A DNA stretch of 32,000 nucleotides, taken from Opitutales bacterium. Lineage in GTDB: Bacteria; Verrucomicrobiota; Verrucomicrobiia; Opitutales; PNEW01. Shown here in pieces: positions 5,927 to 30,333 of this stretch. Each line of letters begins with the position of its first letter. Within the stretch, counting starts at the first letter, position 1. The notes beneath the pieces are model-generated. The model was given only the letters and a program-made list of their open reading frames with translations, had not been told where the DNA came from and did no database searches. The stretch spans positions 1,380,001 to 1,412,000 of the forward strand of contig CBDCNV010000002.1 of NCBI GenBank assembly GCA_965219535.1. The letters are read 5' to 3'. The position numbers and the translations under genes are program-made.

Positions 5927-5987
5927 TAATCCACAATCCGCAATCGCAATTCGACTACCGAGCCCCGCAATCGCGTGGGCGACATCC
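5927..5987. repeat. (AATCCRC/AATCGCA) array followed by a copy of the TACCGAG-hairpin-CGACATC motif (long-stem variant)
   Basis: TAATCCACAATCCGCAATCGCAATTCG, then TACCGAG + GCCCCGC-AATC-GCG(T)GGGC + GACATCC. Confidence 0.75.
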
Positions 5988-6005
5988 ATCATTGAAAGGC
6001 TCCCT

Positions 6006-6812
6006 TTACGATTTCAGGTTTTTGACCATACTTTGGATTCGCGGTCGCTTGCTCTTTAGAAAGGCTTCATGGGGATGGAATATATATGCGGTGTTTTCCT
6101 TAATTAAATTGATATGTTCATCTGTCATCGGCTTCGCCGCGAATTTCATGGCGATATATCTTCGCCTTTCACCCAGTCCCCCATAGACGGCATGGTATGC
6201 GTTCTGATGGAAAATGACAACATCTCCGGGATTGGATTCGATTGCATGGGAGGGAATGTCTGAACTCACCACACCGAATGGCAGACTTGAATGACCACTC
6301 GGATTACTCTCATCTAAACTCCTCAATCCTTCATATTTCATATGATACTGCATAAGCGGATTGAGAGAATCATGATAGGGTGAACGATGAGATCCGGGGA
6401 TGACGCGCAAGGCACCGGTCTCTTTCGTTGTCGGCTCGAGATAAAGGTGAACTTTAAGGCGCGTATAGGTATTCTGATTTTTACCTGGACGATCATTATG
6501 CCAGGTGGTGCTGATTCGCCCTATCTGGCCTTCCGATCCTGCCCAGATAAATTCCGGCCCGAGCAAGAGTTCAATGACATTATATATACGGTCGTCTTCA
6601 ACGAGCGAAGTTAACTTCGGGTGTTTTTCGAAAATCGCGGCTACAGCAGTAGCACCGCTGTATTCACCACCGCCCTCGGGTAACCCTTTTTCAACAGCCC
6701 AAATTTCCTCGGCTGCAACCGTGATTGTTTCCATCTCCATGGGTGAAAACACCTGTCGCAAAACGAGAAACCCGAACGTTTCGAAAAAAGCTAAATGTCC
6801 TGTTTTTACCAT
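6006..6812 (-). CDS. PhyH-family Fe(II)/2OG dioxygenase
   Basis: The ORF track gives 6006..6839 from a TTG. I prefer the ATG at 6812 (MVKTGHLAFFETFGFLVLRQVF, a typical PhyH N-terminus). HxD in TTWHNDRPG, GALRVIPGSH, distal His in VIFHQNAYHAV. Confidence 0.8.
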   Translation of the reverse strand: MVKTGHLAFFETFGFLVLRQVFSPMEMETITVAAEEIWAVEKGLPEGGGEYSGATAVAAIFEKHPKLTSLVEDDRIYNVIELLLGPEFIWAGSEGQIGRISTTWHNDRPGKNQNTYTRLKVHLYLEPTTKETGALRVIPGSHRSPYHDSLNPLMQYHMKYEGLRSLDESNPSGHSSLPFGVVSSDIPSHAIESNPGDVVIFHQNAYHAVYGGLGERRRYIAMKFAAKPMTDEHINLIKENTAYIFHPHEAFLKSKRPRIQSMVKNLKS

Positions 6813-6945
6813 CAATTTATATTGTGTGGGAATGCACAACTTCAGTCAATGGGCATGCGCTATGTTTTTGGTTAAGAAGGTTCCCTTCGACTACACTCAT
6901 GGCGGGCAGGATTATCTGGTCTTCAGGACATCCGGCTTTCTCTTT

Positions 6946-8054
6946 TTATTGTTGCGCTTCCAGTTCACCGCCTTCAAGTCCCAGTGGTAAAGGCGCAGGT
7001 CGCTCAATAGTGCTTTCAACATGAATGTATTTTCCGTTAGTGGAGGATTCAATGAGTGACTCCATCACATCAAGTACGTGGTAGGCTAATTCACCGTTAC
7101 AGCGGTTTTTTCGTTTTCCTCTTATCGCACAGGCCATGTCGGCAACTCCTATGATGCGCATTTGGTTGGTGTAACCATGAGAAAGGGGAACTGACTGCCA
7201 GCCTTCATCCCCGGGTTTATTAATGTAAACCGGGCCATCGAAAATATTCGGATCGGGAACTTTCATACTGCCTTCCTCTCCATGAATTTCTATAGGGTGG
7301 TTGCTATGATGCCATACATCAAAACTCATGATCAGTGTTATCAGGGCCCCACAGGTAAATTCAAGTGTTCCCGCAATATGAGTGGGAACATCGACGGGAA
7401 TTACTCTGATTGCTTGATCTTCACAAGTGGCAATCCGTTCTTTAAATGTAATGGCCGATAGTGCGCACACGCGTTTGACAGGTCCCAGCAGGTTTACGAG
7501 TGCGGTAATATAGTAAGGACCAAAATCGAATAATGGGCCCCCTCCTTTCTTATAAAGAAATTCAGGAATCGGACATTCGCTATCACTGTCTTGTTCCATA
7601 AAAATTGCAGTTCCCGATACCGCTTTCCCTATACACCCATCGTCTATCATCTTGCGGCAGGTTGAAGACCTCCACCGAGGAAAGTGTCAGGTGCACATCC
7701 TACCAGGAGCCGTTGCTTTTGCGCCAGGTTGATAACAGTCATCCCTTCTCTTCGTGTTAGAGCCAACGGCTTTTCACAATGGACATGCTTACCGGCATGC
7801 AATGCCTTTAAATTAACTTCGGTATGAGATTGTGGTGTTGTTAAGTTTAGGACGATTTCAACGTTGCTCGCTTTCAACAAACGCTCAACAGGTATGGCTT
7901 CGATTCCATGTTCTTTTGCCTTCTGTTTTGCCACCTCCTGCTTTATATCCGCGCAAGCAACGATTTGTATATTGGGAAATAATTTGGCAGCTTTCAGATA
8001 GATTTCGCTGATTTTCCCACAGCCAATGACACCTACATTTACTTTATTATTCAT
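6946..8054 (-). pseudogene. Gfo/Idh/MocA-family NAD(P)-dependent oxidoreductase split into N-terminal Rossmann (7647..8054) and C-terminal (6946..7650) ORFs by a 1-nt frame change at an ATGA stop/start overlap
   Basis: The N-terminal ORF has VGVIGCGKIS and the EKP motif and ends ...GGGLQPAAR*. The next ORF starts MIDDGCIGK..., which continues the canonical single-polypeptide sequence. Minus strand reads GCA AGA TGA / ATG ATA GAC. Confidence 0.7.
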
Positions 8055-8082
8055 TTAAAAAATCCTGCATTGCAGGTTTTTA

Positions 8083-8116
8083 GTCAAAAGGTCAAAAGGT
8101 CAAAAGGTCAAAATGG
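8083..8116. repeat. (GGTCAAAA)4 array, 28 nt upstream (minus strand) of the ATG of the Gfo/Idh/MocA gene
   Basis: GTCAAAAGGTCAAAAGGTCAAAAGGTCAAAATGG, preceded by the palindrome CCTGCA-T-TGCAGG at 8064-8076. Confidence 0.9.
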
Positions 8117-8146
8117 AAATTCACATAAGCAGTGATTTTTATGGAG

Positions 8147-8166
8147 GGACGCGCTCCGTCGCGTCC
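8147..8166. repeat. 7-bp-stem hairpin GGACGCG-CTCCGT-CGCGTCC
   Basis: Perfect inverted repeat read directly. Confidence 0.8.
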
Positions 8167-8185
8167 GCTTCAATCGACAATCGAC

Positions 8186-8275
8186 ATGGCCTTTTGACTC
8201 TATACAATCCGAAATCGTAAATTGATATGGCCTTTTGACTTTATACAATCGACAATCGCAAATCGCAAATTGATT
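8186..8275. repeat. Tandem duplication (41 + 49 bp units) ending at the start codon of 8276..9037
   Basis: ATGGCCTTTTGACTCTATACAATCCGAAATCGTAAATTGAT / ATGGCCTTTTGACTTTATACAATCGACAATCGCAAATCGCAAATTGATT. Confidence 0.85.
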
Positions 8276-9037
8276 ATGTCCGCCCTGTCAGTAATACTAT
8301 TCACAGTGAGGGATTTTACTAAAACTCCCGCGGCCATAGTTCAAACACTAAAGAAGGTAAAGGCAATCGGCTATGACCATATTGAGTTAGGAGAACTGGG
8401 CCCAATCAATCCAAAAGAATTGAAGAAGATGGTGGATGCCGAGGGGTTGAGCATTTGCTCAACCCATGTGGAATTGCCTCGGTTGCGGGATGAACTTAAC
8501 GCCGTTATTGAAGAACATCATATCTGGGAGTGTAAGAATGTCGTTATCGGGGCATTGCCTAAAGAAAACCGAAATGAAGATGGTTACAAGCGGTTCGCTA
8601 GAGAATGTTCTGAGATTGGCCGCCGGCTTAATGAGCATGGAATAACATTAAGCTATCACAACCACTGGTGGGAGTTGGAAAAAATCGGTTCTCGGACTGG
8701 GTTGGATATACTGTTTGAGGAGAGTGATCCGGAGACGTTCTTCTTTGAGATTGATACCTGCTGGCTACAGTACGGAGGTGGAGATCCGTCGACATGGATA
8801 AGAAGAATGAAGGGACGACAGCACATGGTCCATTTCAAGGACATGATTTTACCTTCTACCGATACCAGCTCGACCCTTGAGGTGGGAGAGGGCAGTCTTG
8901 ACTTTCCATCGATTATTCAGGCATGTAAGGATGCCGGAGTTCAGTGGTACATCGTGGAACAGGATTATTGTCCGGGTGATCCTTTTGAAAGCATAGAGAA
9001 AAGTTACAGGAATTTGAAAGCTATGGAATTGGGATGA
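8276..9037 (+). CDS. Sugar phosphate isomerase/epimerase (xylose-isomerase-like TIM barrel, AP-endonuclease-2 fold)
   Basis: The ORF track starts at a TTG (8222) inside a tandem repeat. I prefer the ATG at 8276 (MSALSVILFTVRDF...). Typical family features: GYDHIELG, HNHWWE, FFEIDTCW, HFKD, VEQD. Confidence 0.8.
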   Translation: MSALSVILFTVRDFTKTPAAIVQTLKKVKAIGYDHIELGELGPINPKELKKMVDAEGLSICSTHVELPRLRDELNAVIEEHHIWECKNVVIGALPKENRNEDGYKRFARECSEIGRRLNEHGITLSYHNHWWELEKIGSRTGLDILFEESDPETFFFEIDTCWLQYGGGDPSTWIRRMKGRQHMVHFKDMILPSTDTSSTLEVGEGSLDFPSIIQACKDAGVQWYIVEQDYCPGDPFESIEKSYRNLKAMELG

Positions 9038-9055
9038 GATTCAATCGGCATTCCA

Positions 9056-9113
9056 GTACCGAGAGCCCAGCCCTCCTGTCATCTATAGCCTTGTGCGACA
9101 GATGGACATCCCA
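9056..9113. repeat. GTACCGAG...GACATCCCA motif copy with an expanded insert containing the hairpin CTGTC...GACAG
   Basis: GTACCGAG AGCCCAGCCCTC CTGTC ATCTATAGCCTTGTGC GACAG ATG GACATCCCATATTTGAAA, 22 nt before the ATG at 9135. Confidence 0.65.
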
Positions 9114-9134
9114 TATTTGAAAATCCGCAATTAA

Positions 9135-11489
9135 ATGAGTCGTAACACATCACGTGAGAGTAGCAGTCAGCCAGGGTTAACCGCTGTCGTCATCTCGAGT
9201 GTGTTGGTCGATAATGACAGGGCTGCGCTAGTTTCAGCCCTCGAACATTTGCATACGTACTGGGAGCGATATTTTAACAAAGGGAGTTTTCGCATTGCTC
9301 CGGAAGGTGAAAGCTTATCTGCAGAATTGCGAATATTGATTGGCACTGGGGAAACACTGCCCGAGATTGCAAACCTGGAGAACGAGGAAAGGATAGCGAA
9401 GCTCTCATTGGAACCTGAGAGCTTCGCCCTGGACATTACCAAAGTTGACGGGCAGCAACTGGCCGTACTCCGCTCCGTAGACAGACTCGGATTACAATAC
9501 GCGGTCTATGGATTTGCCGAGTATTTCCTGGGTATGCGCTTTGTCCATCCGCATTTCGACGTGGGGCCGGAAGAACCGCCGGCGCCTACGGAATTGCAAA
9601 TTGTAGAGAAGCCGTCCATGTCATTGCGCGTGCTCTATGAAACTTCGCATGTAAATGGTGGATGGCTGCGCGGCACGAGGAGGCAAAAGGCGCATTTCAG
9701 CGATATCGGGGCATGGCGCCTCGAGGATTGGGCGGGCAATCACGAACGTATGCATCTTTACGTTGATTGGGCTGTCAAGAATCGCGCCAACGTGATCATG
9801 TATGATGACACATTTCTGGACGAGAATCTTAAAACGGTCTCGGATGCCATCTGGGATTACATGGACCTTCTCGGGCTAAAGACTATTCTGGATGTCAACC
9901 CTGGTCACTGTCTTCATGATTTCCCGGGTATCAGCGATAATGACTTTTGCCAACCAACTGAGAGTATCGGCAAGCAGTATCCTTCGCCCCTGTGCATAGA
10001 GAAACCAGGGTTCTGGAAAGTTGTGGAGAAAAAATTGGATATCGCCGAGGCGCATGCCCATCGGCTTGCCGGATTGGTCTGTTTCTGGGATGAAGGAGCC
10101 CTCGGCTGGGGAGCTTTGGAAGGGGCGGGCGACGGATCCTATAGTACCCTGTCCGGAATTCTGCTTGATAATGTTACCACACGTTTTGTGGAACCCATAC
10201 TATTCCATGGCGGCTGTGTTACCTGCGGTGACCAACCTAATACCCGGAAGTGGTCAAAGCTGCTGGACCACCTTAACGGTCCAAAGGGCACGGTCGCCCG
10301 TGGATTGCCGGCGGTGGGCATGGGCAGGGCGCACTGCGGCATAGCTGATCCGGACGATGCCCTGATTGCCCGGGAAGTGATTCCCCACCTGCCTTCGGGA
10401 TCATTAAATTACGTTACCGCTGAATCAAACAGTCAGGGAGCGGATCGCATAGAAGCGTGGCCGCAGCTGATTGACGAGGCTAACGCAGCGGATGGTGGGG
10501 ATAGACGAGTGTTCATGCGGAGAGAGCTCACCTACGGCTGTGAGGGTGATTTTCCGCTGGTGCATCCCACTTCTCTAGATCGCACAGACGATGACTTCCG
10601 CATCTTCACCCAATACGCGAGCACCTCAACCTGTCTCGGCGGAGTCTACACTTTTCATTCGATGGGCTGGCTGCTCGCCTGGTATTCGCTGCGAAAACAA
10701 TGGCAACCCTCCGGCGCTTGGACGGACCGACTTACCTCGGAGTTGACCGGTTCCATGGGTGAGGATGCGATCCACCTCGCGGTGTCTATTTTCGAAGCTA
10801 TGAGGGACATCCAATTATACGAAGGGCTCGAGGAAGGCGAGTATGTAACTTATTACAGCCGCTGGGGTCTCGATCTTCACAAACTGGCTCCCGAGACGCT
10901 TAAGGGTGAAAGTCCCTTTGCGCTGTCTCCTGAAGAGGGTTTCTGCCCGTTCATTCGAATTGTCGCAGAGGGTGCGGAAGATAAGCAGAAGCTCTATACG
11001 AGCGGCAACTGTTCACCGGCAGAGAAACGCCTTCAGGGACTGCGGACAAAACTGGGTCGTGTGGAAAGTGAAGTCAAAAATATGGAGACCATGCTGTTTA
11101 CGAGGCGTGATCGATCCTTCTGGGATGAACATCTGATTCAGCCATTGCGCTGGACGGCAGCTTTCCTGAAAAGCCGCGTCGCATTGGCTCTCACCTATTG
11201 CTCCTACACGAAAGTCAGAGAATGGGTAGCCCAGGGGAAAGATGCTTCCGGCCTTGTATCTGAAGGCGAAGCTCTGACCCGTGAAGCGCTTGAAGCACAG
11301 AATCTTTATGTTTGTCTGCGTCCAGGTTTCAGTATGGTGGACTACCCCAAAGAAGTAAATCCGGAGGTCATTCGACACCTCATCGACGAGTGGCGAAATC
11401 TCATCACTCACCCTGAACAGTGTCTGGATCTACCTCTGTTAAACTTTCTTGACCGCGCTGAGCGGCATGTAGAAAACAGGAAAGCCTGA
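9135..11489 (+). CDS. Large hypothetical protein. The N-terminal part resembles the GH20b/DUF4838-type domain of putative glycoside hydrolases. No signal peptide.
   Basis: 784-aa ORF. DRLGLQYAVYGFAEYFLGMRFVHP resembles the conserved DUF4838/GH20-N motif as I recall it. The functional call is weak. The stop codon lies inside a repeat module. Confidence 0.5.
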   Translation: MSRNTSRESSSQPGLTAVVISSVLVDNDRAALVSALEHLHTYWERYFNKGSFRIAPEGESLSAELRILIGTGETLPEIANLENEERIAKLSLEPESFALDITKVDGQQLAVLRSVDRLGLQYAVYGFAEYFLGMRFVHPHFDVGPEEPPAPTELQIVEKPSMSLRVLYETSHVNGGWLRGTRRQKAHFSDIGAWRLEDWAGNHERMHLYVDWAVKNRANVIMYDDTFLDENLKTVSDAIWDYMDLLGLKTILDVNPGHCLHDFPGISDNDFCQPTESIGKQYPSPLCIEKPGFWKVVEKKLDIAEAHAHRLAGLVCFWDEGALGWGALEGAGDGSYSTLSGILLDNVTTRFVEPILFHGGCVTCGDQPNTRKWSKLLDHLNGPKGTVARGLPAVGMGRAHCGIADPDDALIAREVIPHLPSGSLNYVTAESNSQGADRIEAWPQLIDEANAADGGDRRVFMRRELTYGCEGDFPLVHPTSLDRTDDDFRIFTQYASTSTCLGGVYTFHSMGWLLAWYSLRKQWQPSGAWTDRLTSELTGSMGEDAIHLAVSIFEAMRDIQLYEGLEEGEYVTYYSRWGLDLHKLAPETLKGESPFALSPEEGFCPFIRIVAEGAEDKQKLYTSGNCSPAEKRLQGLRTKLGRVESEVKNMETMLFTRRDRSFWDEHLIQPLRWTAAFLKSRVALALTYCSYTKVREWVAQGKDASGLVSEGEALTREALEAQNLYVCLRPGFSMVDYPKEVNPEVIRHLIDEWRNLITHPEQCLDLPLLNFLDRAERHVENRKA

Positions 11490-11722
11490 AGGCCAGAGGG
11501 TCGGACTTCGAGAAAGCCAGACAGCCCGAAGGCTGGAAGGCCGGTTTCGAGTTCCGCAATCGCGGAACGACATCTTCCAAGCCGGAAGGTTGGATTGATG
11601 CATAATATTTGATGTTAAATAATCCTAACGTATTGGTTGATGTCGCACATTACCCTCGGTACGGATGTCCAATTGTCTGGCCTTCCGGAACCCTGGCTTT
11701 CCGGGTGTCCGGCTTTCTGGAT
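11477..11722. repeat. Composite, roughly palindromic spacer between convergent genes. Outer arms are CCGGAAGG/CCAGAAAG-type arrays. Inner elements are a hairpin-GACATCTTCCA copy and an inverted ATGTCG...CCCTCGGTAC copy.
   Basis: Left arm 11477-11544 (it includes the TGA stop of 9135..11489). GTTCCGC-AATC-GCGGAAC at 11551-11568, then GACATCTTCCA. ATGTCGCACATTACCCTCGGTAC at 11640-11661. Right arm CTGGCCTTCCGGAACCCTGGCTTTCCGGGTGTCCGGCTTTCTGG at 11677-11720. Confidence 0.7.
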
Positions 11723-11726
11723 CGCT

Positions 11727-14700
11727 CTAACGCGCTCCCGCTTCCATACGTATCCGGGGATCCAGCCACATCAGTAAAAGATCGCTGACCAATGTACCAA
11801 GGACACCCAATAGACTTAAAATCATGAGCAGGGAACCAGCGAGGTAAGTGTCTTCAGTCATCAGCGCTTCCAACATCATCGGGCCCACAGTGGGCAAGCT
11901 GAGCACCATCGCGACAATCGCCCCGCCGGATACCAGTTGGGGAAAGAGCATTCCTAGCCCTGAGATAAAAGGATTAAACGCGATACGCACTGGATATTTA
12001 ATAAGCAGTTTGAAGGGCCGCACCCCCTTCGCCAGCGCTGTCGTGACATAGGGTTTTCGCAGTTCGTCCAGCAAATTGCCGCGCATTACTCGGATCATGC
12101 TGGCGGTACCGGTAATTCCCAAGACAACAATCGGAACCCAGATGTGTTGTAAAAGATCAATCACTTTGGGCAAAGTCCATTCCACTTGCCCTGCATGTTC
12201 GGGTGAGTAAAGCCCCGTCATACTGATACCAAAATAAGCTTTGGCCCAATACATCAGGAGGAGCGCGAGAAGAAAGCTGGGTACGCACATCCCGATGAAG
12301 CCGAGAAATGTGAAAATATAATCGCCGAGTGAATACTGGCGCACGGCCGAGTAGATTCCGATGGGCAGGGCAACGGCCCAGGTGAAAAGGATAGAACCTA
12401 ACGCGATCAAGACCGTTAGAAAAATACGATCGCCTACTACGTCATTGACGGGTCTCCGGCTCTCCATGGAAAAACCCAAGTGTCCTTGCAGCAAGCCGTG
12501 ATCTTCGGACTTAAAAGATAAAAACCAGGGAAGGCCAAGCCAAACTCCGTACTGGGTTAAGACAGGTTCATCGATGGGAAACAATTTTCGGAGCTGCTCT
12601 GCTTCGATGATGTACCGTTGATCACCCGTTATTTCCGCCTCTAAAATCTTGTTATCAATATAATTACTCGGAGGAAGTTGAATGATAGTAAAGGCCACGA
12701 TGGATATTAGAAGAAGCGTGGGTGCCATAATTAATAAGCGACGCCCAACATAGGGATGCCTTACACCGGTGAGGATGAGTCCCACCGCGAATATGCCAAG
12801 GAAAAGATGGCGAACAAACCTGCCTATGCGAATTCCATTTCCACGTTCAAGAGATTCCGTGAATATCGTGTTATCCCGCGGTGTGATTTCCGTCATTTCT
12901 CTTTTTATTTTAGCAATCGTCCCAGGAGAATCTTTCGGGCTTTCGAAATAGAAAGTTTCGGGGCCGCCATTGGACGGAGGTCCATACCAATATATAAGCT
13001 TGCGCGGAACGTTTTTGAAATCTTTCTTCACGATAGCAAGTTTCGGAGTCGGCGTAGAGATGCCGATGGCCCAGAGTTCTTCAGCCATGATATCCTGGAC
13101 TTCCCGAATAATCTCCCTCTGCTCTTGAATCGTGGGGGCCTGTTGCGCTGCATCAAATAATTCCATACAGCGCCGCACCGGATGTCCTGGCGGCGGCTCA
13201 ATTCCACCCTCTTCGGTCGCTCTGGGATCACCGTAAAGCCCACCATATACATACCATGAGGTATATCCCCGCGCTTGTGACCACTCGGATATAAAACCTC
13301 TGTTTTTTAAAATTGGATTGAAACCACCACCAACACCAAATATATGAAAATCGTTCTTTCGCGCCCGGCTTATAACATTAAAATAATTCATGGTTAGCTC
13401 CCGCTCAATGGCACGGAGACCGACCTTTTTCCAACCCTCGATGACAAAGGAGGAAGGACCCTGGGCAAAGTTGGGGATAATATCGAGATACCAAACCATG
13501 CGGGTACCATCCTTGAAATTGCGATATCCGTTTGCGTCCCTTCCTATCAAACCGATCTCATCCAACAACTGGTTGGCGCGATCAGGATCGTAATCGGTAT
13601 AATTTTTATGTAGTTTTTCGTGATAAAAAAAAGATTCTCTACCGGGTCCTACTTGTGCCGGTTCTCCCCACCCATCATAGATGGCATCTATAATCTCTTG
13701 CCGATTAATCGCGAGTGATAGCGCCTTGCGGAATCGCTTGTCATTGAGCAGTTCACCTTTCTTTGCTGTCCTTGGATCATTCGGATCGATATAACGATTA
13801 AGATTAGGAAAAATCGCCCAATCAGAAACCCCGGCATCGTACCAGTGGTAAACTTCATAATTGTTTTCTTCGCGCTGAGACATGAAGAGGGTGTAATACA
13901 AATAATAAATATTGATCGCCTGCATCGTAATACCGCCTTCAGCTGCGGTGATTGGAACAAGTGCAATGTTTCTTACATCGAGCAAAACACGGTCGACATA
14001 AGGGAGTTGGTTACCCTCGGTATCTACAGCCCAGTAGTAGGGATTGCGTACGTATGACCGCGGAGGATTAGCTTTGTAGGTGCGATAAAGCCAAGGCCAG
14101 AGACGGGGATGCTCGGGGTTGTCATAGAGTTTCAATTCTATATAAAGTCCGAGCCGGGTGGGAATTTTTTTTGCTTTCATCGTATCTTCAATAAGCGTGT
14201 CGTCACCGATTTCGGGGTGATATTTTTCCATATAGTGACGGGGCGAACAAAAAGTGTGAGCCTCGGCCATTCGCTCAAGAAAAAGCGGATGCGGTGCAGA
14301 AAAAACGAATTTTAAGGTGTGTGTATCGATTTTAATGATCTCGCCTGTCTTGCCAGCGGTTATCAGCCATCGATAACTCTCCTCTTCCGCATAGGGTGTT
14401 TCATAATTCCACCAGTAGAGAATGTCAGCTGCGGTAAAAGGGTGACCATCTGACCATTTCATCCCCTTGCGTAAATAGATCGTCCATTCTTTTTTGTCTG
14501 GTGAGGCTTTCCATCCCTTGGCGACGTGGGGCACAATCGGATAACCGAGAGGTGACAAGCGGACGAGAGTCGACCCGGAATACCAACTTTCGACCAAAGT
14601 TTGGACATTGTGCGGATTGTTTAACACCCCAAGCCATGTTCCTCCGTATTTGCCTATACCTTCTACTCCTTCTATCACTACCGGTTCCGGTCCTACCCGT

Positions 14701-15002: not shown

Positions 15003-15012
15003 GTTGTTTTTA

Positions 15013-15044
15013 GTCAAAAGGTCAAAAGGTCAAAATGTCAAAAC
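15013..15044. repeat. (GGTCAAAA)4 array, 10 nt upstream (minus strand) of the GTG start of 11727..15002
   Basis: GTCAAAAGGTCAAAAGGTCAAAATGTCAAAAC. Confidence 0.9.
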
Positions 15045-15064
15045 GTTGAAGACTAAGGAAAGAC

Positions 15065-15215
15065 CAGTGAACGGTAAACAGTGAACAGTGGGGAGAGTAG
15101 GGGTGTGGTTGCCCTGTCTTGTTTAAACTCGCAATGACAAATGAAATATTTCAACCTCCAAAATCCGACATCCCAAATCCGCAATCCGCTACCGAGGGCA
15201 AAGCCCGACATCCCA
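15065..15215. repeat. Mosaic of a (GTGAACA) array ending CAGTGGGG, a CTCGCAATGACAA motif, an (AATCCGC) array and the TACCGAG-GGGC-AAA-GCCC-GACATCCCA hairpin motif
   Basis: Read directly. The hairpin stem is 15196-15199/15203-15206. The motif ends 9 nt before the ATG at 15224. Confidence 0.8.
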
Positions 15216-15223
15216 CATTTGAA

Positions 15224-16156: not shown

Positions 16157-16211
16157 GGGGAGTTGCGGATTTATTATAATAGTGCTAGCTATTCTTACCT
16201 GAACCCTGAAC
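16157..16211. repeat. Dispersed roughly 55-bp unit (copy 1): GGGGAGTTGCGGATTTATTATAATAGTGCTAGCTATTCTTACCTGAACCCTGAAC
   Basis: Near-identical to 21768-21820 (2 mismatches seen). A related degenerate version lies at about 19571-19620. Confidence 0.85.
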
Positions 16212-16432
16212 GGAATCAAATTATGAATTTGGAATTAGGAATTATGAAAAAAGCGTTAGTTACACGACACCTGCCTGCCCTGATCGTAGTCGAAGGGAAC
16301 CCTGTACCGAGAGCGTAGCTCGACATCTTCCACCCTGATCGGAATCAAATTATGAATTAGGAATTATGAATTATGAAAATTCCTCTAGTTACCCAACACC
16401 TGCCTGCCCTGAGCGAAGTCGAAGGGAACCCT
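16204..16432. repeat. Direct duplication of a roughly 100-bp composite unit (period about 129 bp) separated by a hairpin motif copy
   Basis: Units 16204-16303 and 16333-16432: CCCTGA(A/T)CGGAATC + (GAATTAT/GAATTAG) array + ACACCTGCCTGCCCTGA(T/G)CG(T/A)AGTCGAAGGGAACCCT. The linker 16304-16332 is GTACCGAG-AGC-GTA-GCT-CGACATCTTCCA. Confidence 0.85.
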
Positions 16433-17990: not shown

Positions 17991-18047
17991 CGGGAGAAAG
18001 ACCAGTTAACATTTTGGGAGTGACTAATTATTGCAGATTTATTCACC

Positions 18048-18175
18048 TTGTCATCGCGAGGCTGCTTGTCAACCGTGGCTACCAAGCGCAGCGACATCTT
18101 CCATTCCAGGGGAATGTCGATTGCGAAAAGTTAGCCCCCTGGATTGCTTCGTCACGTTGCTCCTCGCAATGACAA
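18048..18175. repeat. Nested inverted repeats: outer TTGTCATCGCGAGG / CCTCGCAATGACAA, inner CGACAT...ATGTCG and CCAGGGG...CCCCCTGG
   Basis: Outer arms 18048-18061 and 18162-18175 (13/14 complementary). Inner arms 18092-18097/18114-18119 and 18106-18112/18135-18142. It also contains a CGACATCTTCCA copy. Confidence 0.7.
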
Positions 18176-18210
18176 AAAAATTATACAGCCTTCCAAATCC
18201 CTAATCAAAA

Positions 18211-19601: not shown

Positions 19602-19671
19602 CTTACCTGAACCCTGAACCCTGAACCCTGAACCCTGAACCCTGAACCCTAACACGCGCGCCTCCGCGCGC
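19602..19671. repeat. CTTACC + (CTGAACC)6 + CTAACAC + hairpin GCGCGC-CTCC-GCGCGC, ending 1 nt from the stop of 19673..20503
   Basis: Six perfect heptamers at 19607-19648. Inverted relative to 19467-19497. Confidence 0.9.
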
Positions 19672-20520: not shown

Positions 20521-20546
20521 GAGTCGAAAGTCGAAGGTCAAATGTC
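20521..20546. repeat. (GTCGAAA/GGTCAAA) array, 17 nt upstream (minus strand) of the ATG of 19673..20503
   Basis: GAGTCGAAAGTCGAAGGTCAAATGTC. Confidence 0.8.
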
Positions 20547-20575
20547 TAATGCAGGGAAATATAGAAAATAAATTT

Positions 20576-21767: not shown

Positions 21768-21820
21768 GGGGGAGTTGCAGATTTATTATAATAGTGCTAA
21801 CTATTCTTACCTGAACCCTG
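21768..21820. repeat. Dispersed roughly 55-bp unit (copy 2), interrupted at its CTGAACC end by the IS
   Basis: GGGGAGTTGCAGATTTATTATAATAGTGCTAACTATTCTTACCTGAACCCTG, then the IS left end. Confidence 0.85.
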
Positions 21821-23198: not shown

Positions 23199-23411
23199 CC
23201 GATACCTATACTCGATACCGATACCTCTAACCTAAAACTTAACCCGCGCTCCAGCGCTCTTTCACTGTTTACTGTTCACTGTTTACTGATTTCCCCCCGA
23301 CACCTGACACCGGACAACCAGAAGGCCGGCGGGCTGGAAGAGTTCAGGGTAGAAAATATGTCCACACAAGAATAGTATTCTCCTTCAACCGTGAACGGTG
23401 AACCTTGAACC
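23199..23411. repeat. Mosaic spacer: GATACC array, TAAAAC array, GCGC-TCCA-GCGC hairpin, inverted GTGAACA array, GACACC array, CCGGAAGG-type module, GTGAACG array
   Basis: 23199-23225, 23227-23243, 23246-23257, 23263-23288, 23298-23316, 23318-23340 and 23387-23411, all read directly. Confidence 0.8.
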
Positions 23412-24378: not shown

Positions 24379-24646
24379 AAGGAAGTATTGGATGGGTGGA
24401 TGATTGGAAGGTTGGAGTATTGAAGAATGAGAGATTAAACAATAGAAGATATTAAATATGAGGGTATCAGGTGTCGGTGGTGAATGAAAAGTGACTTGGG
24501 TTAGTTTAGACAATCCTTAAGATTCATGGGCTTTACTTTTGGACATTTTGAAGTACGCTAGCCTTTGTCCCTGACACCCGACACCTGCCCTGAGCACTGG
24601 CAAAGGGAATTTTTAACCTTGAACATTGAACGGTGAACGGTGAACC
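24379..24646. repeat. Mosaic spacer: ATTGGAAG-type array, inverted pair of GACACC arrays, CCTGCCCTGAGC motif, GTGAACG/TTGAACA array
   Basis: 24379-24433; 24465-24482 (reverse complement) versus 24570-24589; 24615-24646. Confidence 0.8.
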
Positions 24647-24656
24647 TTATTCAAAA

Positions 24657-26000
24657 ATGAGTATCACTGAACTGCACGCCAAAGCTGCCCGCTTGGAGCG
24701 GGAGTTGCAGGAGACGCGTGAGCTTCTTGCGCGGAAGACTCATGACTCGGAGGCGGTCACGGCCGAACTTAGGCGCACGCGGGCTTATGCGTTCGACGCT
24801 GCCGCGCTGCCGCTTGAGGAGGTGGTTGCGGGTTGTGCCGATTCGCTCGAGCGTTACGGGTTCTGCGTCGTCGACCATGTGATACCACCCGATGAGGTGG
24901 ATGCGATACGCGAGGAAGCGGAGGCGGCGCATGCCACCATTGAACGCAATAAACAGGGCATCAAGGATCTGTTTGAAAAAGAGGGGGCGAACGCCGAGGA
25001 TTTACTCAACGGTAAGGCTGCGGCAAACGGCGTGGAGTTAAGGCGGGTGCGCCGCATCGGACACCCCCCGAAAGCTCCGAACGACATTATCTGGATGCCG
25101 CAGTACGCCCAACATTTGGCTAACCCGGTCATCACCGCCCTCGCAAGCCACGTCCTCGATGACCACCTTCGAATCGCGCAGCTACATATGCGTTTCATCG
25201 AGACCGACAAAGCCGACGGCACCCCGGGTGGGTTCAACATCGGTGATTACAAGAACAAGGGCCGTGCCGACACCCGTGAATGGCACACCGACTGGCCCCA
25301 TGACCTTTCAGCTTACGGCAATAAAGACCCCTACCATAATGTAGGCTGCATCCGCCAGCCCTTCCCCGACGTGCCGATGTGCCTGGTTATGATCTGGTAT
25401 TTAACCGACACTGATGAAAACTCGGGTGGAACCTGGGTTGTTCCCGGATCGCATAAGGACGAACGGAACCCACGGGGACCGGCCGACAATATAAATATCG
25501 CCGCCCCCATTCCCGGTGACATTCAAGTGACGGCTCCGGCGGGGTCGGTCTATATTCAGGACTCGCGCAGTTGGCATTCGTCCACGATGCATAATCCGAG
25601 CGGACGGGCGAGGATCGCGATCGTAAACCGCTGGGCCCCCTGGTGGTTGTCCGTCGATGACTTCGCCCCCGGAGATACGTACAATCTCAACACGATATGT
25701 ATGCCACTGACGCACGCAGAGTATCTCGCCCTACCCTCTAACCTTCAACCCTTGATGCGGCATCTCTGCCCCGATGAGCATGACACCTTGCAGCAACCAG
25801 TCCTCGATCGAGCCGCCGCCGCTCGTTTACGCGCGACTGTAGGATTTAAGCAACTGGATGAAGATCCAGAGTCGTTGAAACATGCCAACGCACACATTCG
25901 TGTGCCGTTGGACCTGAAAACCAGAGGACCGGAAAGCCTGAAAGCCGGAGGACCGGAGAGCCTGAAGACTAGAAAGCCGGAGAACCAGAAGGTTAGTTAG
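24657..26000 (+). CDS. PhyH-family Fe(II)/2OG dioxygenase with an N-terminal coiled-coil-like extension and a repeat-encoded C-terminal tail
   Basis: The ORF track starts at a GTG (24633) inside a GTGAACG array. I prefer the ATG at 24657 (MSITELHAKAARLERELQETRELL). REWHTDWPHD (HxD), GGTWVVPGSHKDE, SRSWHSS. The tail DLKTRGPESLKAGGPESLKTRKPENQKVS is a translated repeat module. Confidence 0.8.
   Translation: MSITELHAKAARLERELQETRELLARKTHDSEAVTAELRRTRAYAFDAAALPLEEVVAGCADSLERYGFCVVDHVIPPDEVDAIREEAEAAHATIERNKQGIKDLFEKEGANAEDLLNGKAAANGVELRRVRRIGHPPKAPNDIIWMPQYAQHLANPVITALASHVLDDHLRIAQLHMRFIETDKADGTPGGFNIGDYKNKGRADTREWHTDWPHDLSAYGNKDPYHNVGCIRQPFPDVPMCLVMIWYLTDTDENSGGTWVVPGSHKDERNPRGPADNINIAAPIPGDIQVTAPAGSVYIQDSRSWHSSTMHNPSGRARIAIVNRWAPWWLSVDDFAPGDTYNLNTICMPLTHAEYLALPSNLQPLMRHLCPDEHDTLQQPVLDRAAAARLRATVGFKQLDEDPESLKHANAHIRVPLDLKTRGPESLKAGGPESLKTRKPENQKVS
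25911..25993. repeat. CCGGARAGCCTGAA-type array lying inside the 3' end of CDS 24657..26000
   Basis: GACCTGAAAACCAGAGGACCGGAAAGCCTGAAAGCCGGAGGACCGGAGAGCCTGAAGACTAGAAAGCCGGAGAACCAGAAGG. Same family as 11477-11544. Confidence 0.8.
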
Positions 26001-26024
26001 CAGGATAACTGGTTCCGTTAGCTA

Positions 26025-26087
26025 CATCCTGTATCCTTCATCTTGCAACCTGAACCCTGTACCGAGGGCGTAGCCCGACATCTTCCA
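26025..26087. repeat. (ATCCTGT/ATCCTTC/ATCTTGC) heptamers, a CTGAACC unit and the hairpin motif GTACCGAG-GGC-GTA-GCC-CGACATCTTCCA
   Basis: Stem 26066-26069/26073-26076. Confidence 0.8.
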
Positions 26088-26277: not shown

Positions 26278-28320
26278 ATGTCGGAATCAGACCCTGCTCT
26301 TCACGATTTAGAGCAACTCAAGAAGCAGGCCAAGTGCCTGCTCAAAGCCGCTCGTTCGGGCGATCCCAAAGCAACCAGTCGCTTCGCAATATACGGTTTC
26401 TCAAACCAGAAAGAAGCTGAATACAAACTCGCCAATGCCCAGCTAATCATCGCTCGCGACAGGGGCTTCGACAGTTGGAGAAAACTACGCAGCTACATTG
26501 AAAAAAGTATCGCCGATGTTTTCTTCGCTGCCCTTGCGGAAGGCAAACTGCGCAAATTCAAGCTGCTCCTCAAAGAGTACCCAGCTCTTAAGGGAGCCCG
26601 CGAAAAGAAAAGTAAGCTGCTCCCTGTCCAGATCGCCTTACAACAGGGAAATCACGAGTTGACCCGCTTCTTATTCGCCCTCGAAGAACCCATGAGTAAA
26701 TCCAAGTATCAATACTTGGAAAACGGACCCATGCACGATATCTGGAGTATGGTGAACGCTGCTTATACGGGAGATCTTCCCACTATTACCTCACTCATAA
26801 AGCGATCGCCTCAATTAGTGAACAGTCACTATGACTATGTGTGCCCTCTTCATTTAGCGGTCATCAACGGGCACGATGACGTCGCGCAATATCTTATCGC
26901 TCAGGGGGCCGACATAAGCAGCGATAACTACTGGTTTAAAGACTCGCTCGTCACCACTACGACGGACCGTCAGTCAACGCACATGCGTGAGATAATTATC
27001 GAAGCGCTAAAAAAACGCTTCCAATACTACGCGCCAGGACCTCATGCGATACTCGATGCGGTAAAAGGGGACGATCAGATCACCGTAGAACGCATACTCA
27101 CAGCTACACCCGACGAGGTTAACGTCTGTGATGAAACAGGTAATACGCCCCTGCACCTCGCGGTCATGAATCTGAACACGGAACTCGTCCAATGCCTCAT
27201 CGAGCATGGGGCCGATCCCAATGCGATTAACAAAGTCGGATTCAAGCCCATCCACTACGCGTTTTACAAAAATAACTTCTGGCTTAAAGAAAACAAAGGC
27301 CTTCCACTTGCTGAGTACTTGCGAGACAACGGAACGGAGTACAACATCCATCTCGCCACTCTCTTCGGCGATCTGAATGGGGTTCAGGCCTTTCTTTCGA
27401 AGGACCCCTCACTCAGTAACTTCCATGACAGCTGCGACAAGCGTCCGCTTTCTTCCGCGGCGGCAGTAGGCAACGCAGCGATGGTGAAAATCCTCCTGGA
27501 AAATGGAGCCGATCCGATGGGACCGGAAAGTAATTCTCCGAACGGTCACGCGCTATGGATTGCCGCATATAAAAATTATCCGGCCATTGTCGAAATGCTA
27601 CTCAATGCCGGGGCCGATCCACACAGTATGGTTCACGCTTGTGGATCAGCTTTTACCGCAGGAAAGGATCATCCGGAAGTATTCGAGATCTTTAAACGTT
27701 TTACCGAGACGCCTATTGATCCGGATCCTGAGGAAGAAAAAGGTCTCGATCCCGTAGTGGGAGCAATACTTGATAATAATCTCGAAAAAGTACGGCAATA
27801 TCTCGATGAAAACCCAGCGCTTGCCACTAATAATGAAGCCTTCTATGGTGAAGGTTATCTCGCAATCGCCGCGAATCGCAATTTTACCGAGATCATTGAC
27901 CTCCTTATTGAACGCGGCGCAACGACACCCGATCAATCCAACTGGGGACCCGAATATAGTTTCAAGCATCTCGACCTCGCTCGGAGATTCCTTGAAAATG
28001 GAGCGAACCCGAATCACTGCAACTGGCTCAAGCGTACTATTCTCCATTTTTTCGCTTACCATGGCGACCTGGATAAAGTGAACCTCCTCCTGGAGTTCGG
28101 CGCAGAGATTGACCCCATCGATATGGAATACCAATCCACACCACTTGGCTTCGCCGCGAGAGGTGGACAAGTCGAAGTCGTTAAACGCCTGCTCGAAGTC
28201 GGTGCTGATCCCAATCTTCCCGAGCACCCACTCTGGGCAAAGCCGCTAGCCTGGGCGAAGGCTAGGAACCACCAGGAGGTAGTGGAGATATTGGAGGGGA
28301 GAGTGAACAGTGAACGGTAA
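26278..28320 (+). CDS. Ankyrin-repeat protein (about 680 aa, many ANK repeats); no signal peptide
   Basis: The ATG at 26278 is preceded by GGAG. Repeated ANK consensus: TPLHLAVMNLNTELVQCLIEHGADPN, RPLSSAAAVGNAAMVKILLENGADP, TPLGFAARGGQVEVVKRLLEVGADPN. Confidence 0.85.
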   Translation: MSESDPALHDLEQLKKQAKCLLKAARSGDPKATSRFAIYGFSNQKEAEYKLANAQLIIARDRGFDSWRKLRSYIEKSIADVFFAALAEGKLRKFKLLLKEYPALKGAREKKSKLLPVQIALQQGNHELTRFLFALEEPMSKSKYQYLENGPMHDIWSMVNAAYTGDLPTITSLIKRSPQLVNSHYDYVCPLHLAVINGHDDVAQYLIAQGADISSDNYWFKDSLVTTTTDRQSTHMREIIIEALKKRFQYYAPGPHAILDAVKGDDQITVERILTATPDEVNVCDETGNTPLHLAVMNLNTELVQCLIEHGADPNAINKVGFKPIHYAFYKNNFWLKENKGLPLAEYLRDNGTEYNIHLATLFGDLNGVQAFLSKDPSLSNFHDSCDKRPLSSAAAVGNAAMVKILLENGADPMGPESNSPNGHALWIAAYKNYPAIVEMLLNAGADPHSMVHACGSAFTAGKDHPEVFEIFKRFTETPIDPDPEEEKGLDPVVGAILDNNLEKVRQYLDENPALATNNEAFYGEGYLAIAANRNFTEIIDLLIERGATTPDQSNWGPEYSFKHLDLARRFLENGANPNHCNWLKRTILHFFAYHGDLDKVNLLLEFGAEIDPIDMEYQSTPLGFAARGGQVEVVKRLLEVGADPNLPEHPLWAKPLAWAKARNHQEVVEILEGRVNSER

Positions 28321-28385
28321 ACAGTGAACAGTGGGGGAAACCGTAGGCAAATTATGAATTAGGAATTAAGAATTATGAATTAGGG
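28303..28385. repeat. (GTGAACA) array containing the stop of the ankyrin gene, then a (GAATTAT/GAATTAG/GAATTAA) array
   Basis: GTGAACAGTGAACGGTAAACAGTGAACAGTGGGGG, then AAATTATGAATTAGGAATTAAGAATTATGAATTAGGG. Confidence 0.85.
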
Positions 28386-28528: not shown

Positions 28529-28590
28529 TCTCACCTAACGCCAAAAAATTAAAACGCGCGTCAGTGCTTTTTCACTGTTTACTGATCCCC

Positions 28591-28625
28591 CTCGACACCC
28601 GACACTCGACACCTGACACTCGACC
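28591..28625. repeat. (CGACACC/CGACACT/TGACACT) heptamer array, 5 nt upstream of the sulfatase ATG
   Basis: CTCGACACCCGACACTCGACACCTGACACTCGACC. Confidence 0.85.
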
Positions 28626-28630
28626 TGAAA

Positions 28631-30073
28631 ATGACCAAAAAAAACATCATGCTGATTATTTCGGATCAGCAACGCACGGACACAATCAGTTATCTCGGTC
28701 GCACACCTTGCCGCACACCGCATATCGATGCCTTAATTGATCGTGGGGTTATTTTTGAGAAGACGATCACACCCACCCCGGTCTGCACCCCTGCGCGGGC
28801 GTCCATCTTTACCGGACTCTACGCCCATCAAGCCAAGGGAACTTTTGCCAAAGATCATGTCGGTCCTCTCAGCGATGATCAGATGACAGCCGATGCGACG
28901 GACATGCTGCTCTGTGATTACTCCTGCCGGGAAGAACCACTGCTGACGGACGCCCTTAAAGCAGAAGGGTATTACTGTTGCTATGTGGGTAAATGGCACC
29001 TTGGCGACGATATTTTCGATAATTGGTTTGAACATCATCACGGGGAGACAGATCAGCAGTATATTGATTGGTCCAACGAGCAGGGATATCCTGATGCCTG
29101 GTCTTTGAGCGATTTATCGGTTCGCAGTCACCGCAACCCCCCGATGTCCATCCCTGTGGCCAAAGAAAATAAAATTCCTCACGAGAAGAGTAACGACGCG
29201 TGGATCGCTGACCTTTCCATCGAGATGATTGAACAGCGCCCGAAAGATAAACCCTTCATGGCGGTCTGCAGTATGATCGGGCCCCATCCGCCATTCAAGA
29301 TACCGGAACCTTATTTCAGCATGTATGACGATGAGGAGGTTCCCGAACCACCTAACTTTCATCTCACGGAAGGAAAACCAAAATGCAAGGAAGCGAGTTT
29401 CTATCATAAACTTTGGGAAGACCACGGCACCGACTGGTCAGCGTGGAAAAAATCGGTGACGACTTACTGGGGATTTGTCACCCACATCGACGACCAGGTC
29501 GGACGTCTTATCCAATGCCTCAAAGACGAAGGTGTTTATGAGGATACACTTATTATTTTCTGCAGCGACCACGGTGAAATGCTGGGCCAGCATGGTCTGT
29601 GGCATAAAATGCAGGCTTATGAGGAGTCGCTTCGCGTCCCCCTGGTTTTCAGTGCGCCATGGATCAAATGTGATAAACGTTCAACTACGCTTACCTCACT
29701 GATCGATTTAACCCCGACAATTCTCAGCTCGGCGGGCTGTCCGATTCCGGATTCATACGAGGGTGAAGACTTGTCTGCATTATTAAACGGGCAGAGTGAC
29801 CGGACTGCACGCAGCGCACTCTTCAGCGAACACAAACCGGATGGGGATTATCACATGGAGACTGATTGGAGAATGGTGACGGATAATAAGTTTAAATATA
29901 TCTGGAATCGCGGTGAGTGCGAAGAGCTATACGATCTGGAATCAGACCCCTGGGAAAAGGTTAACCTCGCTAACAACAATCAGGATAATGAACGTCTGGC
30001 TTTCTATCGATCCCAACTCATTGAGTGGATGGAGAAAACGGAAGATCCGATGCGGACCCAATTAGGAATTTAG
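28631..30073 (+). CDS. Sulfatase (S1 family, Cys-type formylglycine motif); no signal peptide
   Basis: 480-aa ORF with NIMLIISDQQRTD, CTPARASIFTG (CxPxR), GKWHLG, CSDHGEMLGQHGLWHK and a C-terminal LYDLESDPWE motif. Confidence 0.9.
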   Translation: MTKKNIMLIISDQQRTDTISYLGRTPCRTPHIDALIDRGVIFEKTITPTPVCTPARASIFTGLYAHQAKGTFAKDHVGPLSDDQMTADATDMLLCDYSCREEPLLTDALKAEGYYCCYVGKWHLGDDIFDNWFEHHHGETDQQYIDWSNEQGYPDAWSLSDLSVRSHRNPPMSIPVAKENKIPHEKSNDAWIADLSIEMIEQRPKDKPFMAVCSMIGPHPPFKIPEPYFSMYDDEEVPEPPNFHLTEGKPKCKEASFYHKLWEDHGTDWSAWKKSVTTYWGFVTHIDDQVGRLIQCLKDEGVYEDTLIIFCSDHGEMLGQHGLWHKMQAYEESLRVPLVFSAPWIKCDKRSTTLTSLIDLTPTILSSAGCPIPDSYEGEDLSALLNGQSDRTARSALFSEHKPDGDYHMETDWRMVTDNKFKYIWNRGECEELYDLESDPWEKVNLANNNQDNERLAFYRSQLIEWMEKTEDPMRTQLGI

Positions 30074-30093
30074 ATTTATGATGCTGTAAAGGT

Positions 30094-30149
30094 GCTGCCC
30101 GCCCTGAGCTCGATGATATCCCTGAGCTCGTCGAAGGGTCGAAGGTAAG
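30094..30149. repeat. CCCTGAGC...GTCGAAGGG motif with an internal duplication
   Basis: GCTGCCCGCCCTGAGCTCGATGATATCCCTGAGCTCGTCGAAGGGTCGAAGGTAAGC. Same family as 16271-16303, 16400-16432, 6879-6910 (reverse complement) and 24585-24608. Confidence 0.75.
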
Positions 30150-30173
30150 CAAGCCATTCATGTATCTTTCTTT

Positions 30174-30333
30174 CTGATATCCGACGTTTGATATTTGATG
30201 TTTGATGTTTGAAGTGCTTTAATTACATCGCATATCAAATATCGGATATCGTACCGAGGACGAAGTCCGACGTCTTCCAAATCGTATATCTTTCCCACCG
30301 AACCGTTGAACCGTGAACTGTGAACGGTGAACC
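30174..30333. repeat. Inverted pair of (TTGATRT) arrays, the hairpin motif GTACCGAG-GAC-GAA-GTC-CGACGTCTTCCA, and a GTGAACG array
   Basis: 30174-30214 versus 30231-30251 (reverse complement). Stem 30258-30261/30265-30268. Array 30300-30333. Confidence 0.8.

Follow-up and report, generated by a model that had tools for sequence, protein, structure and literature searches.

The stretch analysed here, hereafter the window, is a 32,000-nt (32-kb) segment of a contig from an Opitutales bacterium (CBDCNV010000002.1, positions 1,380,001 to 1,412,000 of the forward strand). Its genes encode six PhyH dioxygenases, a sulfatase, an ankyrin-repeat protein, two paralogous solute-binding/permease fusions and an IS481-family transposase. 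Between them recurs a short motif in which TACCGAG (5') and CGACATC(TTCCA) (3') enclose a hairpin, the whole unit measuring 24-36 nt and typically 28 nt. The copies probably represent a new family of miniature hairpin elements resembling repetitive extragenic palindromic sequences (REPs) and small dispersed repeats (SDRs), that is, very small non-coding dispersed repeat modules.

The hairpin copies and their spacers

The sequences quoted for nine sites in a first-pass annotation of this DNA were all found where it had placed them (9/9). Searching the window for TACCGAG-N9-CGACATC with at most one mismatch returned five hits, against 0.00 expected from 100 dinucleotide-preserving shuffles. A covariance model (R1), made from related copies and run on the window with filters off, retrieved the nine sites and nothing else above noise, seven of them at E<0.01. 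The weak matches were those at 11548, where the 5' flank is altered, and at 9054, where the copy is interrupted. All nine lie between open reading frames (ORFs).

The canonical short-stem copy (26059..26087, + strand) pairs GGGC with GCCC around a GTA loop, stands amid GAACCCT repeats and scores 54.9 bits. Two other copies carry, as had been proposed, double stem substitutions that preserve pairing, namely GAGC GTA GCTC at 16304..16332 (+) and GGAC GAA GTCC at 30251..30279 (+). The former is flanked by CCCTG repeats and is also present at the orthologous site of the related chromosome OY829953.1 (L027:5743-5775; the prefix L marks related loci). Around it lie two 101-nt direct repeats (16203..16432, +; 88% identical, 129 nt from start to start), neither of which occurs in the orthologous OY829953.1 spacer. 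The latter, matched by R1, has CGACGTC in its 3' flank and is contained in a GATATCG carrier repeat of ~170-190 nt (30138..30304, +) with four matches in OY829953.1. Another short-stem copy, GGGC AAA GCCC (15190..15217, +), belongs to the subfamily with a CCNCA 3' flank and is located in an AATCCGC heptamer array; its CGACATC ends 11 nt upstream of the ATG at 15224. Finally, a minimal copy reads TACCAAG, CGCAG and CGACATC TTCCA (E 0.005). It had been noticed at 18084-18102, and its extent is corrected here to 18080..18103 (+), in the left arm of a 155-nt palindromic carrier spanning 18028..18184, with no strand assigned (minimum free energy, MFE, -51.5, z -2.75).

Longer stems were found at two sites. 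At 5956..5991 (+), in a convergent spacer, TACCGAG is followed by CCCCGC, an AATC loop, GCG(T)GGG and CGACATC CATCA (E 0.004; RNA MFE -12.6 kcal/mol, z -2.5). The copy at 11545..11579 (+) pairs TTCCGC with GCGGAA around the same loop and ends in CGACATC TTCCA (MFE -11.9, z -3.0). Its left flank had rightly been seen as altered, and it is TTTCGAG, not TTCGA, that replaces TACCGAG. This copy is the left half of an inverted pair, of which the right half is a degenerate-stem copy, GGGT AAT GTGC, at 11634..11662 (-; E 6.5e-06). The whole convergent spacer (11486..11726, unstranded), which consists of CCGGAAG-type heptamers plus this inverted pair, forms one long imperfect palindrome with an MFE of -104.8 kcal/mol (z -5.6), a stability that none of 200 shuffles equalled. 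Such close inverted pairs are few (11545/11634 in the window, 2819/2897 in L010, where the 155-nt palindromic element holds two inverted copies and takes on a REPIN-like look); most copies are singletons or stand in mixed clusters.

The copy at 9056..9113 (+) had been described as having an expanded insert. The insert is real, and it consists of a second small repeat (CCATAGCCTTG- or CTATAGCCTTG-type) that is nested in a normal copy and splits it; the same composite occurs at L023:856-919. This second dispersed repeat, CCATAGCCTTGGCGACGG, has 26 matches in the loci analysed with at most one mismatch. Its sites in the window are 9083 (+), 21726 (-) and 28406 (+), with 23 further matches in related loci, and it is found between GTCAAAAG arrays, within a GGTGGAACGCG...CGCGTT palindrome and nested in the hairpin motif. 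Another module, CCTGCCTGCCCTGAGC(N)AAGTCGAAGGGAACCCT, often directly adjoins the hairpin motif (16270-16303, 16399-16432, 6879-6910 on the - strand, 24580-24600 and 30094-30140).

Nearly every spacer of the window is a mosaic of tandem 7-mers, namely GAACCCT, GTGAACR, CTAAAAC/CTAACAC, TCGAAAG, GAATTAT (GAATTAK), GACACCY (GACACYY) and GATRTTT, together with one 8-mer, GTCAAAAG. Spacers built of tandem 7-mer arrays are otherwise known from heterocystous cyanobacteria. Arrays were located at 603-632, 3576-3608, 4688-4708, 8082-8114, 15012-15093, 16217-16248, 16346-16377, 16431-16470, 17961-17992, 19603-19651, 20523-20549, 20615-20649, 28302-28379, 28596-28625 and 30176-30212, and their lengths at orthologous sites differ between the window and OY829953.1. 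The hairpin motif is found within heptamer arrays or within larger repeats, and its stem subfamily tracks the type of the flanking heptamer: GAACCCT accompanies GRGC GTA GCYC, GATATCG accompanies GGAC GAA GTCC, AATCSRC accompanies GGGC RAA GCCC and GTGAACG accompanies GGGT ATA RCCC. Past ~10-15 nt no relationship is seen between the flanks of different copies, so that the copies are not simply the output of a few segmental duplications. In the same way, the possibility raised at the outset that they are recent duplicates of a few source loci does not agree with a core that sits in at least eight unrelated sequence contexts.

Anatomy of the unit and covariation of its stem

Pooling three to four related lineages yielded 117 copies in distinct contexts. 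Among them each flank base of T-A-C-C-G-A-G and C-G-A-C-A-T-C is either invariant or conserved at above 90%. Two types of 3' flank exist: TTCCA, with a G preceding TACCGAG, and CC(N)CA-T(Y)GAAA, with a C in that place. The middle part shows sharp length peaks at 9 nt (79/117 copies; a 4-bp stem, outer G-C counted, and a triloop), 16-17 nt (18/117; a 7-bp stem and a tetraloop, with a one-base bulge in some) and 5 nt (10/117; a 2-bp stem and a triloop), and stems range overall from 2 to 8 bp. The short ones include GGGC/GCCC, GAGC/GCTC, GGAC/GTCC, GGGT/ACCC and GGTT/AACC, the longer ones CCCCGC/GCGGGG-type, CACCGC/GCGTGTG, TTCCGC/GCGGAA, CTCAGC/GCTGGG and TCCCAC/GTGGGA. The loops had been called mostly GNA triloops, which applies to 48 of the 79 distinct 9-nt copies; the others are AAA, TAA, ATA, GCC and more, and neither GNRA nor UNCG loops are favoured.

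The claim that pairing and not sequence is maintained between constant flanks was upheld across several lineages, with 77 copies of the short-stem and 18 of the long-stem class. For the short class (77 copies, 60 distinct rows), 96.7% of cells held standard pairs versus 90.7% in column shuffles, a value that 0/500 shuffles reached, and both sides had changed in 17 cells where 3.0 were expected. When the 3' partner was slid by 1-3 columns, only 21-49% pairing was left. The long class behaved likewise, with 92.1% of cells paired versus 84.4% in shuffles (0/500 reached it) and double changes at four of its seven pairs (1/500 shuffles). Compensatory changes thus exceed column shuffles in both stem classes, and pairing is kept across at least 12 different stem sequences. 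Conservation of pairing rather than of sequence is a robust result, and support for the hairpin comes from this covariation and not from folding energy. On the motif strand, G.T mismatches outnumber A.C mismatches (18 vs 7), an excess that weakly suggests folding of the motif strand rather than of its complement.

Some other likenesses of the unit were tried and rejected. Tandem G.A/A.G oppositions by the stem (G8.A22, A9.G21) recall a kink-turn, but the alignment shows no conserved pairing of a C-stem. The TGG-N9-GC spacing on the reverse strand resembles a sigma-54 promoter, but the GGAC/GTCC subfamily does not retain the -12 GC, and a TTGC is absent. Finally, the 3' flank resembles the terminal repeat of IS481 (GGACATCCTTTACA vs CGACATCTTCCA), a likeness too short and one-sided to be meaningful.

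Range, gain and loss of the unit

Scanning one genome per GTDB species with the pattern GTACCGAG-N9-21-CGACATCTTCCA gave 49 loci, 32 of which belong to two Opitutales metagenome-assembled genomes, OY829953.1 (a 4.49-Mb chromosome, 23 blocks) and CBDANS01 (9 blocks). The other 17 come from unrelated phyla, as singletons or as stretches of conserved coding sequence, in a number close to the estimated chance level. A third lineage, whose identity to the window is 84-94%, came from a scan of metagenomes (contigs Ga0114993, Ga0114996, Ga0114999 and Ga0115002). The hairpin motif family is therefore restricted to a narrow Opitutales (Verrucomicrobiota) clade. The strict-pattern copies of OY829953.1 are unevenly spread, with clusters at 1.94-2.05 Mb, at 2.78-2.83 Mb and at 4.29-4.49 Mb, the last running on to 0.03 Mb across the record start. 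Of note, the core is 100% identical between copies of CBDANS01 and OY829953.1, whose genes are only 70-84% identical.

Four with/without comparisons show that the motif is a discrete unit, gained or lost as a block. Loci L100 and L086 are population variants whose flanks are 99-100% identical, and they differ by 33 nt, made up of one more 28-nt unit and a CCATG/CCCTG repeat of 5 nt. In L100 this additional unit differs from its neighbour in the loop (ATA vs TAA) and also in flank bases. The GATATCG carrier (~190 nt) contains the motif in the window (30150-30330), L033 and L034:7110, and lacks exactly the motif in L034:4020, L031 and L022. Likewise, the 155-nt palindromic element bears the motif in the window and L010, while L020:5960-6130 is the same carrier without exactly the motif and with GA in its place; L010:7080-7260 and L014:6770-6940 form a further pair with and without it. 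Moreover, the array of seven GAACCCT heptamers at 19603..19651 (+) is uninterrupted in the window, while its OY829953.1 counterpart (L022:953-985) is broken by a copy and further modules. Three variants occupy the place upstream of the PhyH gene at 15224 in three lineages: GGGC AAA GCCC in the window, GGGC TAA GCCC in L094 and GGAC GAA GTCC in OY829953.1.

Where a period-7 array continues on both sides of a copy, its phase is offset by 5 nt in nine of ten scorable cases, which is suggestive only of a 5-nt target duplication on insertion. At the orthologous site of the L100/L086 indel (L086:1125-1147, L066:4066-4088, L089:4876-4898 and L100:3725-3785), the triloop of population variants is TAA, ATA or GTA, with stem and flanks unchanged and surroundings 96-100% identical; all three loops recur among three other contigs. 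These triloop differences suggest hypermutability of the loop or conversion between copies.

Larger rearrangements also separate the window from its ~90% identical counterpart in OY829953.1 (1.944-1.984 Mb), namely a 9.4-kb extra segment and an inversion just past the IS481 copy. The extra segment (5766-15213), which carries a paralogous transporter gene, is absent at this place from OY829953.1 and L094, and two genes at 16505-19464 (difference interval 16121-19667) are absent from L094. The 9.4-kb indel, the two-gene indel and the inversion end in repeat-rich spacers, and these spacers may promote the rearrangements that end in them. The IS481-family element lies at 21820-23195, with a 396-aa transposase at 21907-23097; a partial copy, identical over its first 300 nt, is found at window 1-628, and OY829953.1 synteny inverts immediately after the element.

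Several features of the neighbouring genes deserve mention. The two fusions (697-3567, and 11727-15017 on the - strand; 956 and 1096 aa) are paralogous, with ~73% nucleotide identity, and join a family-5 solute-binding protein to an ABC permease domain. Two ORFs overlapping by 4 nt, 6946-7650 and 7647-8054 (-), hold the N-terminal Rossmann domain and the C-terminal domain of a GFO/IDH/MocA oxidoreductase, which would be a frameshifted pseudogene or else a gene that is truly split. Arrays of CCGGAAR/GAAGGCC-type heptamers at 11477-11543 and 25929-26003 (also at 23310-23336 and 29713-29739) enter the 3' ends of ORFs 9135-11489 and 24633-26000, in which they would encode C-terminal seven-residue peptide repeats. 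Finally, GC-rich GCGC...GCGC hairpins lie at or across stop codons, usually beside CTAAAAC arrays (633-645, 680-696, 5772-5785, 16474-16490, 17945-17960, 19653-19672, 23247-23260 and 28553-28566), and may be real terminators or another repeat family.

Origin of the copies and comparison with known systems

Small hairpin repeats are common in bacteria. If the family described here is of the REP/SDR-like kind, its unit would spread as a non-autonomous element. The motif strand would fold, and by analogy with REP/RAYT and SDR logic a trans-acting factor might read the two fixed flanks together with the folded single strand; insertion may duplicate ~5 nt of the target. Repeat-laden spacers would in turn be substrates for recombination, by which the PhyH/sulfatase gene islands are reshuffled. 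A bolder version of this reading, which we hold to be rather doubtful, would make the family an independent second case of 'ultra-small mobile elements', which have so far been reported only from Nostocaceae. The 28-nt module would then be actively inserting into heptamer arrays and repeats through a folded single-stranded intermediate, with a ~5-nt duplication and an enzyme that is neither RAYT nor IS200-type, and arrays and module would form one coupled system that drives turnover of gene content in the PhyH/sulfatase islands.

Passive spread is the main rival. The motif would hitch-hike on array slippage, unequal crossing-over, gene conversion and segmental duplication inside the repeat-rich islands, and its hairpin would be kept by descent or because palindromes favour such events. 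The pairing of every stem subfamily with its own heptamers fits this explanation, as do the carriers that have themselves multiplied with their motif, the concentration of OY829953.1 copies in a few islands and the failure to find a transposase gene in the ~570 kb around copies; the head-to-tail 33-nt indel between L100 and L086 could come from unequal exchange. However, simple co-duplication does not explain why the same 14 flank bases accompany at least 12 stems in at least eight unrelated contexts. The tandem copies of L100 are unlike in loop and flanks, so that the second was not copied from its neighbour, and the identity of the core across species with diverged genes, like the compensatory pair changes in the stems, also speaks against passive spread, which we consider unlikely.

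The first-pass annotation had also offered a structured RNA element. Such a cis-acting hairpin in untranslated regions would control the stability, processing or translation of mRNAs from PhyH, sulfatase and transporter genes. In the window, each of the nine copies points the same way as a neighbouring gene, and the excess of G.T over A.C on the motif strand would suit an RNA; this co-orientation is not upheld in the larger sample, and a sense-strand bias of 24:10 in the first 34 tandem-spacer copies was gone at 53 (31 sense vs 22 antisense in co-directional spacers, p=0.27). The closeness of two copies to the start codons at 15224 and 9135 is real and not general, the distance to the downstream gene being elsewhere ~20 to more than 400 nt. 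The link to a leader or ribosome-binding site through 'GACATCCCAYATTTGAAA' was dropped because these distances are not fixed and because TTGAAA belongs to the gene leader, which in OY829953.1 is kept apart from the motif by extra heptamers. Of the scored copies, 106/107 lie outside ORFs of at least 200 aa (the non-coding share of the sequence is 24%), and they occupy convergent (25), divergent (18) and tandem (53) spacers alike; no replication-strand bias was seen by local GC skew of the OY829953.1 blocks (20 vs 22). Rfam gave 0 matches at the gathering score and only an irrelevant mir-190 match at E<=1. CGACATC(TTCCA) always directly follows the hairpin, with no T-run, which excludes an intrinsic terminator. 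Stems that vary from 2 to 8 bp, the lack of a preferred GNRA or UNCG loop, variants that differ at orthologous genes and matching repeat elements with or without the motif complete a picture in which a structured regulatory RNA is not supported and appears quite improbable. A duplex DNA binding site, that is, an operator or nucleoid-protein site co-regulating island genes, would account for the near-invariant flanking words and for copies confined to the spacers of a few PhyH-rich gene islands. Nevertheless, the centre is free in sequence and length (5, 9, 16-17 nt) yet self-complementary, which a duplex reader would neither need nor tolerate, position relative to promoters varies, and divergent (promoter-only) spacers were sparser in the first sample (0.6 vs 1.25-1.5 copies per kb). 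A duplex operator is likewise not supported, and we regard it as very improbable.

Several observations weigh against a REP/SDR-like element. In the carrier cases 2-3 nt replace the motif without a clean duplication of 5 nt, which makes the duplication inconsistent across cases. Pairs with and without the motif could record deletions instead of insertions, and three of the four are paralogous carrier repeats that may stand for one event per carrier. The tracking of heptamer type by stem subfamily could be produced by co-duplication or gene conversion without dedicated machinery. The short hairpin alone is thermodynamically ordinary (RNA MFE -3.9 to -6.0 kcal/mol, z -0.3 to -1.7), and the shuffle controls for covariation ignore the relatedness of copies, many of which are identical. 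Flank invariance is partly a matter of ascertainment, the loci having been fetched with an exact-flank pattern; in secondary copies, for which one mismatch was allowed in either flank, the flanks are conserved as well. Finally, the loci around the copies yielded neither a transposase nor any other candidate for a mobilising gene next to a copy.

The search for such an enzyme covered ~570 kb around copies, including every 8-kb block of OY829953.1 with a strict-pattern copy, the rest of the genome lying outside it. Among 2,137 six-frame ORFs there was no match to IS200/IS605 TnpA, with a query that matched PDB TnpA structures at 1e-23. For RAYT, phmmer with E. coli TnpA-REP (identical to PDB 4ER8) against six-frame ORFs of at least 70 aa reached a best E of 0.86, which makes a RAYT gene bracketed by canonical copies unlikely. 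A crude HUH...Y..NP regular expression matched only two amidohydrolase-like ORFs. The suggestion of a hairpin recognised as single-stranded DNA has thus survived in part. A REP-like hairpin fits better than RNA, and the specific link to REP/RAYT or IS200/IS605 is not borne out, given the lack of a Y1/HUH gene in the ~570 kb, of a clear GTAG tag and of a fixed insertion target, the copies being mostly singletons. Small ORFs (100-330 aa) in the motif-holding 8-kb blocks of OY829953.1 and CBDANS01 number 118 and include, among the best 25 of 93 Pfam families, at least 21 PhyH dioxygenases and at least four 23S_rRNA_IVP proteins. The latter, Avd-like four-helix-bundle proteins, are often tied to mobile or retroelement contexts.

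To our knowledge, how the smallest hairpin repeats move is still unknown for CGTC-type REPs and for cyanobacterial SDRs. The present family is a clean test case, with fixed 7-nt 5' and 7-12-nt 3' flanks around a hairpin of 2, 4 or 7 bp and with presence/absence recorded once between near-identical population variants and three times between paralogous repeats. The complete chromosome OY829953.1 would allow a catalogue of every copy and of candidate enzymes. What is new is a repeat family in a phylum with hardly any such elements described; the kind of element and compensatory stem changes between subfamilies were already known. If the motif were only passively duplicated sequence, it would be an ordinary lineage-specific repeat. 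The spacers, as hot spots of rearrangement, will also confound assembly and annotation of these genomes.

REPs have an unpaired GTAG or CGTC tag and stems of 5-13 bp, mostly 6-9, and they fall into subfamilies marked by complementary substitutions in the stem and by G.T pairs (Di Nocera et al. 2013, PMC3733652). Like REPs and REPINs (PMC3733652; Bertels & Rainey 2011, PMC3116915), the present motif is a multi-copy short extragenic stem-loop with conserved unpaired bases by the stem. Shared with REPs are also the stem subfamilies, the occurrence as singletons, inverted pairs and clusters, the presence of some copies in larger repeats and a REP-rich relative in the same order, REPs being abundant in Opitutus terrae (PMC3733652). 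No clear tag is seen: the motif strand reads GTAC-CGA-stem, and the opposite strand reads GTCG-stem, in which the last G is paired and which agrees only with the degenerate GTMG variant (PMC3733652); there is no CGTC. Conserved words flank both sides of the hairpin here and one side in REPs. Most stems are shorter (79/117 of 4 bp, 10 of 2 bp and only 18 of 7 bp, against the usual 6-13 bp), the inverted doublet of REPINs is not the usual unit, no RAYT gene lies near any copy, and copies are embedded in heptamer arrays.

The ends of IS200/IS605 elements and their gene-less derivatives, the palindrome-associated transposable elements (PATEs), offer another comparison, in that a hairpin flanked by conserved bases left single-stranded would be suited to recognition by a Y1/HUH enzyme that works on single-stranded DNA. 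IS200/IS605 elements insert 3' of a fixed tetra- or pentanucleotide without target duplication. Here, on the contrary, there is one hairpin per unit and not two subterminal ones, TnpA was not found in the ~570 kb, the sequence 5' of the unit is variable (CCCTG, TATCG, AATCG, CCGC, GCCAC and others) with no fixed 4-5 nt target, and a 5-nt duplication is possible. Miniature inverted-repeat transposable elements (MITEs) are likewise small, non-coding, intergenic and present or absent among relatives, with a possible short target duplication. Unlike MITEs, the motif has no terminal inverted repeats (TACCGAG and TTCCA are not complementary), and its 28 nt are far below MITE size.

The cyanobacterial families SDR1-8, ascribed to work of Elhai and colleagues in 2008, are reportedly 21-27 nt long and share a hairpin with compensatory changes; they are said to occur inside heptamer repeats or mini-transposons and to show nested insertions. 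We know of no transposase associated with them. As far as these reported features go, the likeness extends to the 20-30 nt size, the hairpin with compensatory changes, the embedding in heptamers and mini-elements, the nested insertions and the narrow clade. The Opitutales motif differs in its phylum (Verrucomicrobiota vs Nostocaceae), in its single core with fixed flanks and three hairpin length classes, and in the lack of HIP1 involvement, the window having only four GCGATCGC sites, whereas SDR5/HIP1 insertion has been described (PMC4390886). Common descent is unlikely since the host is a member of the Opitutales and SDRs have been reported only from Nostocaceae (PMC5861425). Compared by description only, the cyanobacterial SDR elements would nevertheless be the closest behavioural parallel. 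Heptamer arrays with nested mini-repeats are thus not peculiar to Nostocaceae, which points to a shared mechanism or to convergent evolution.

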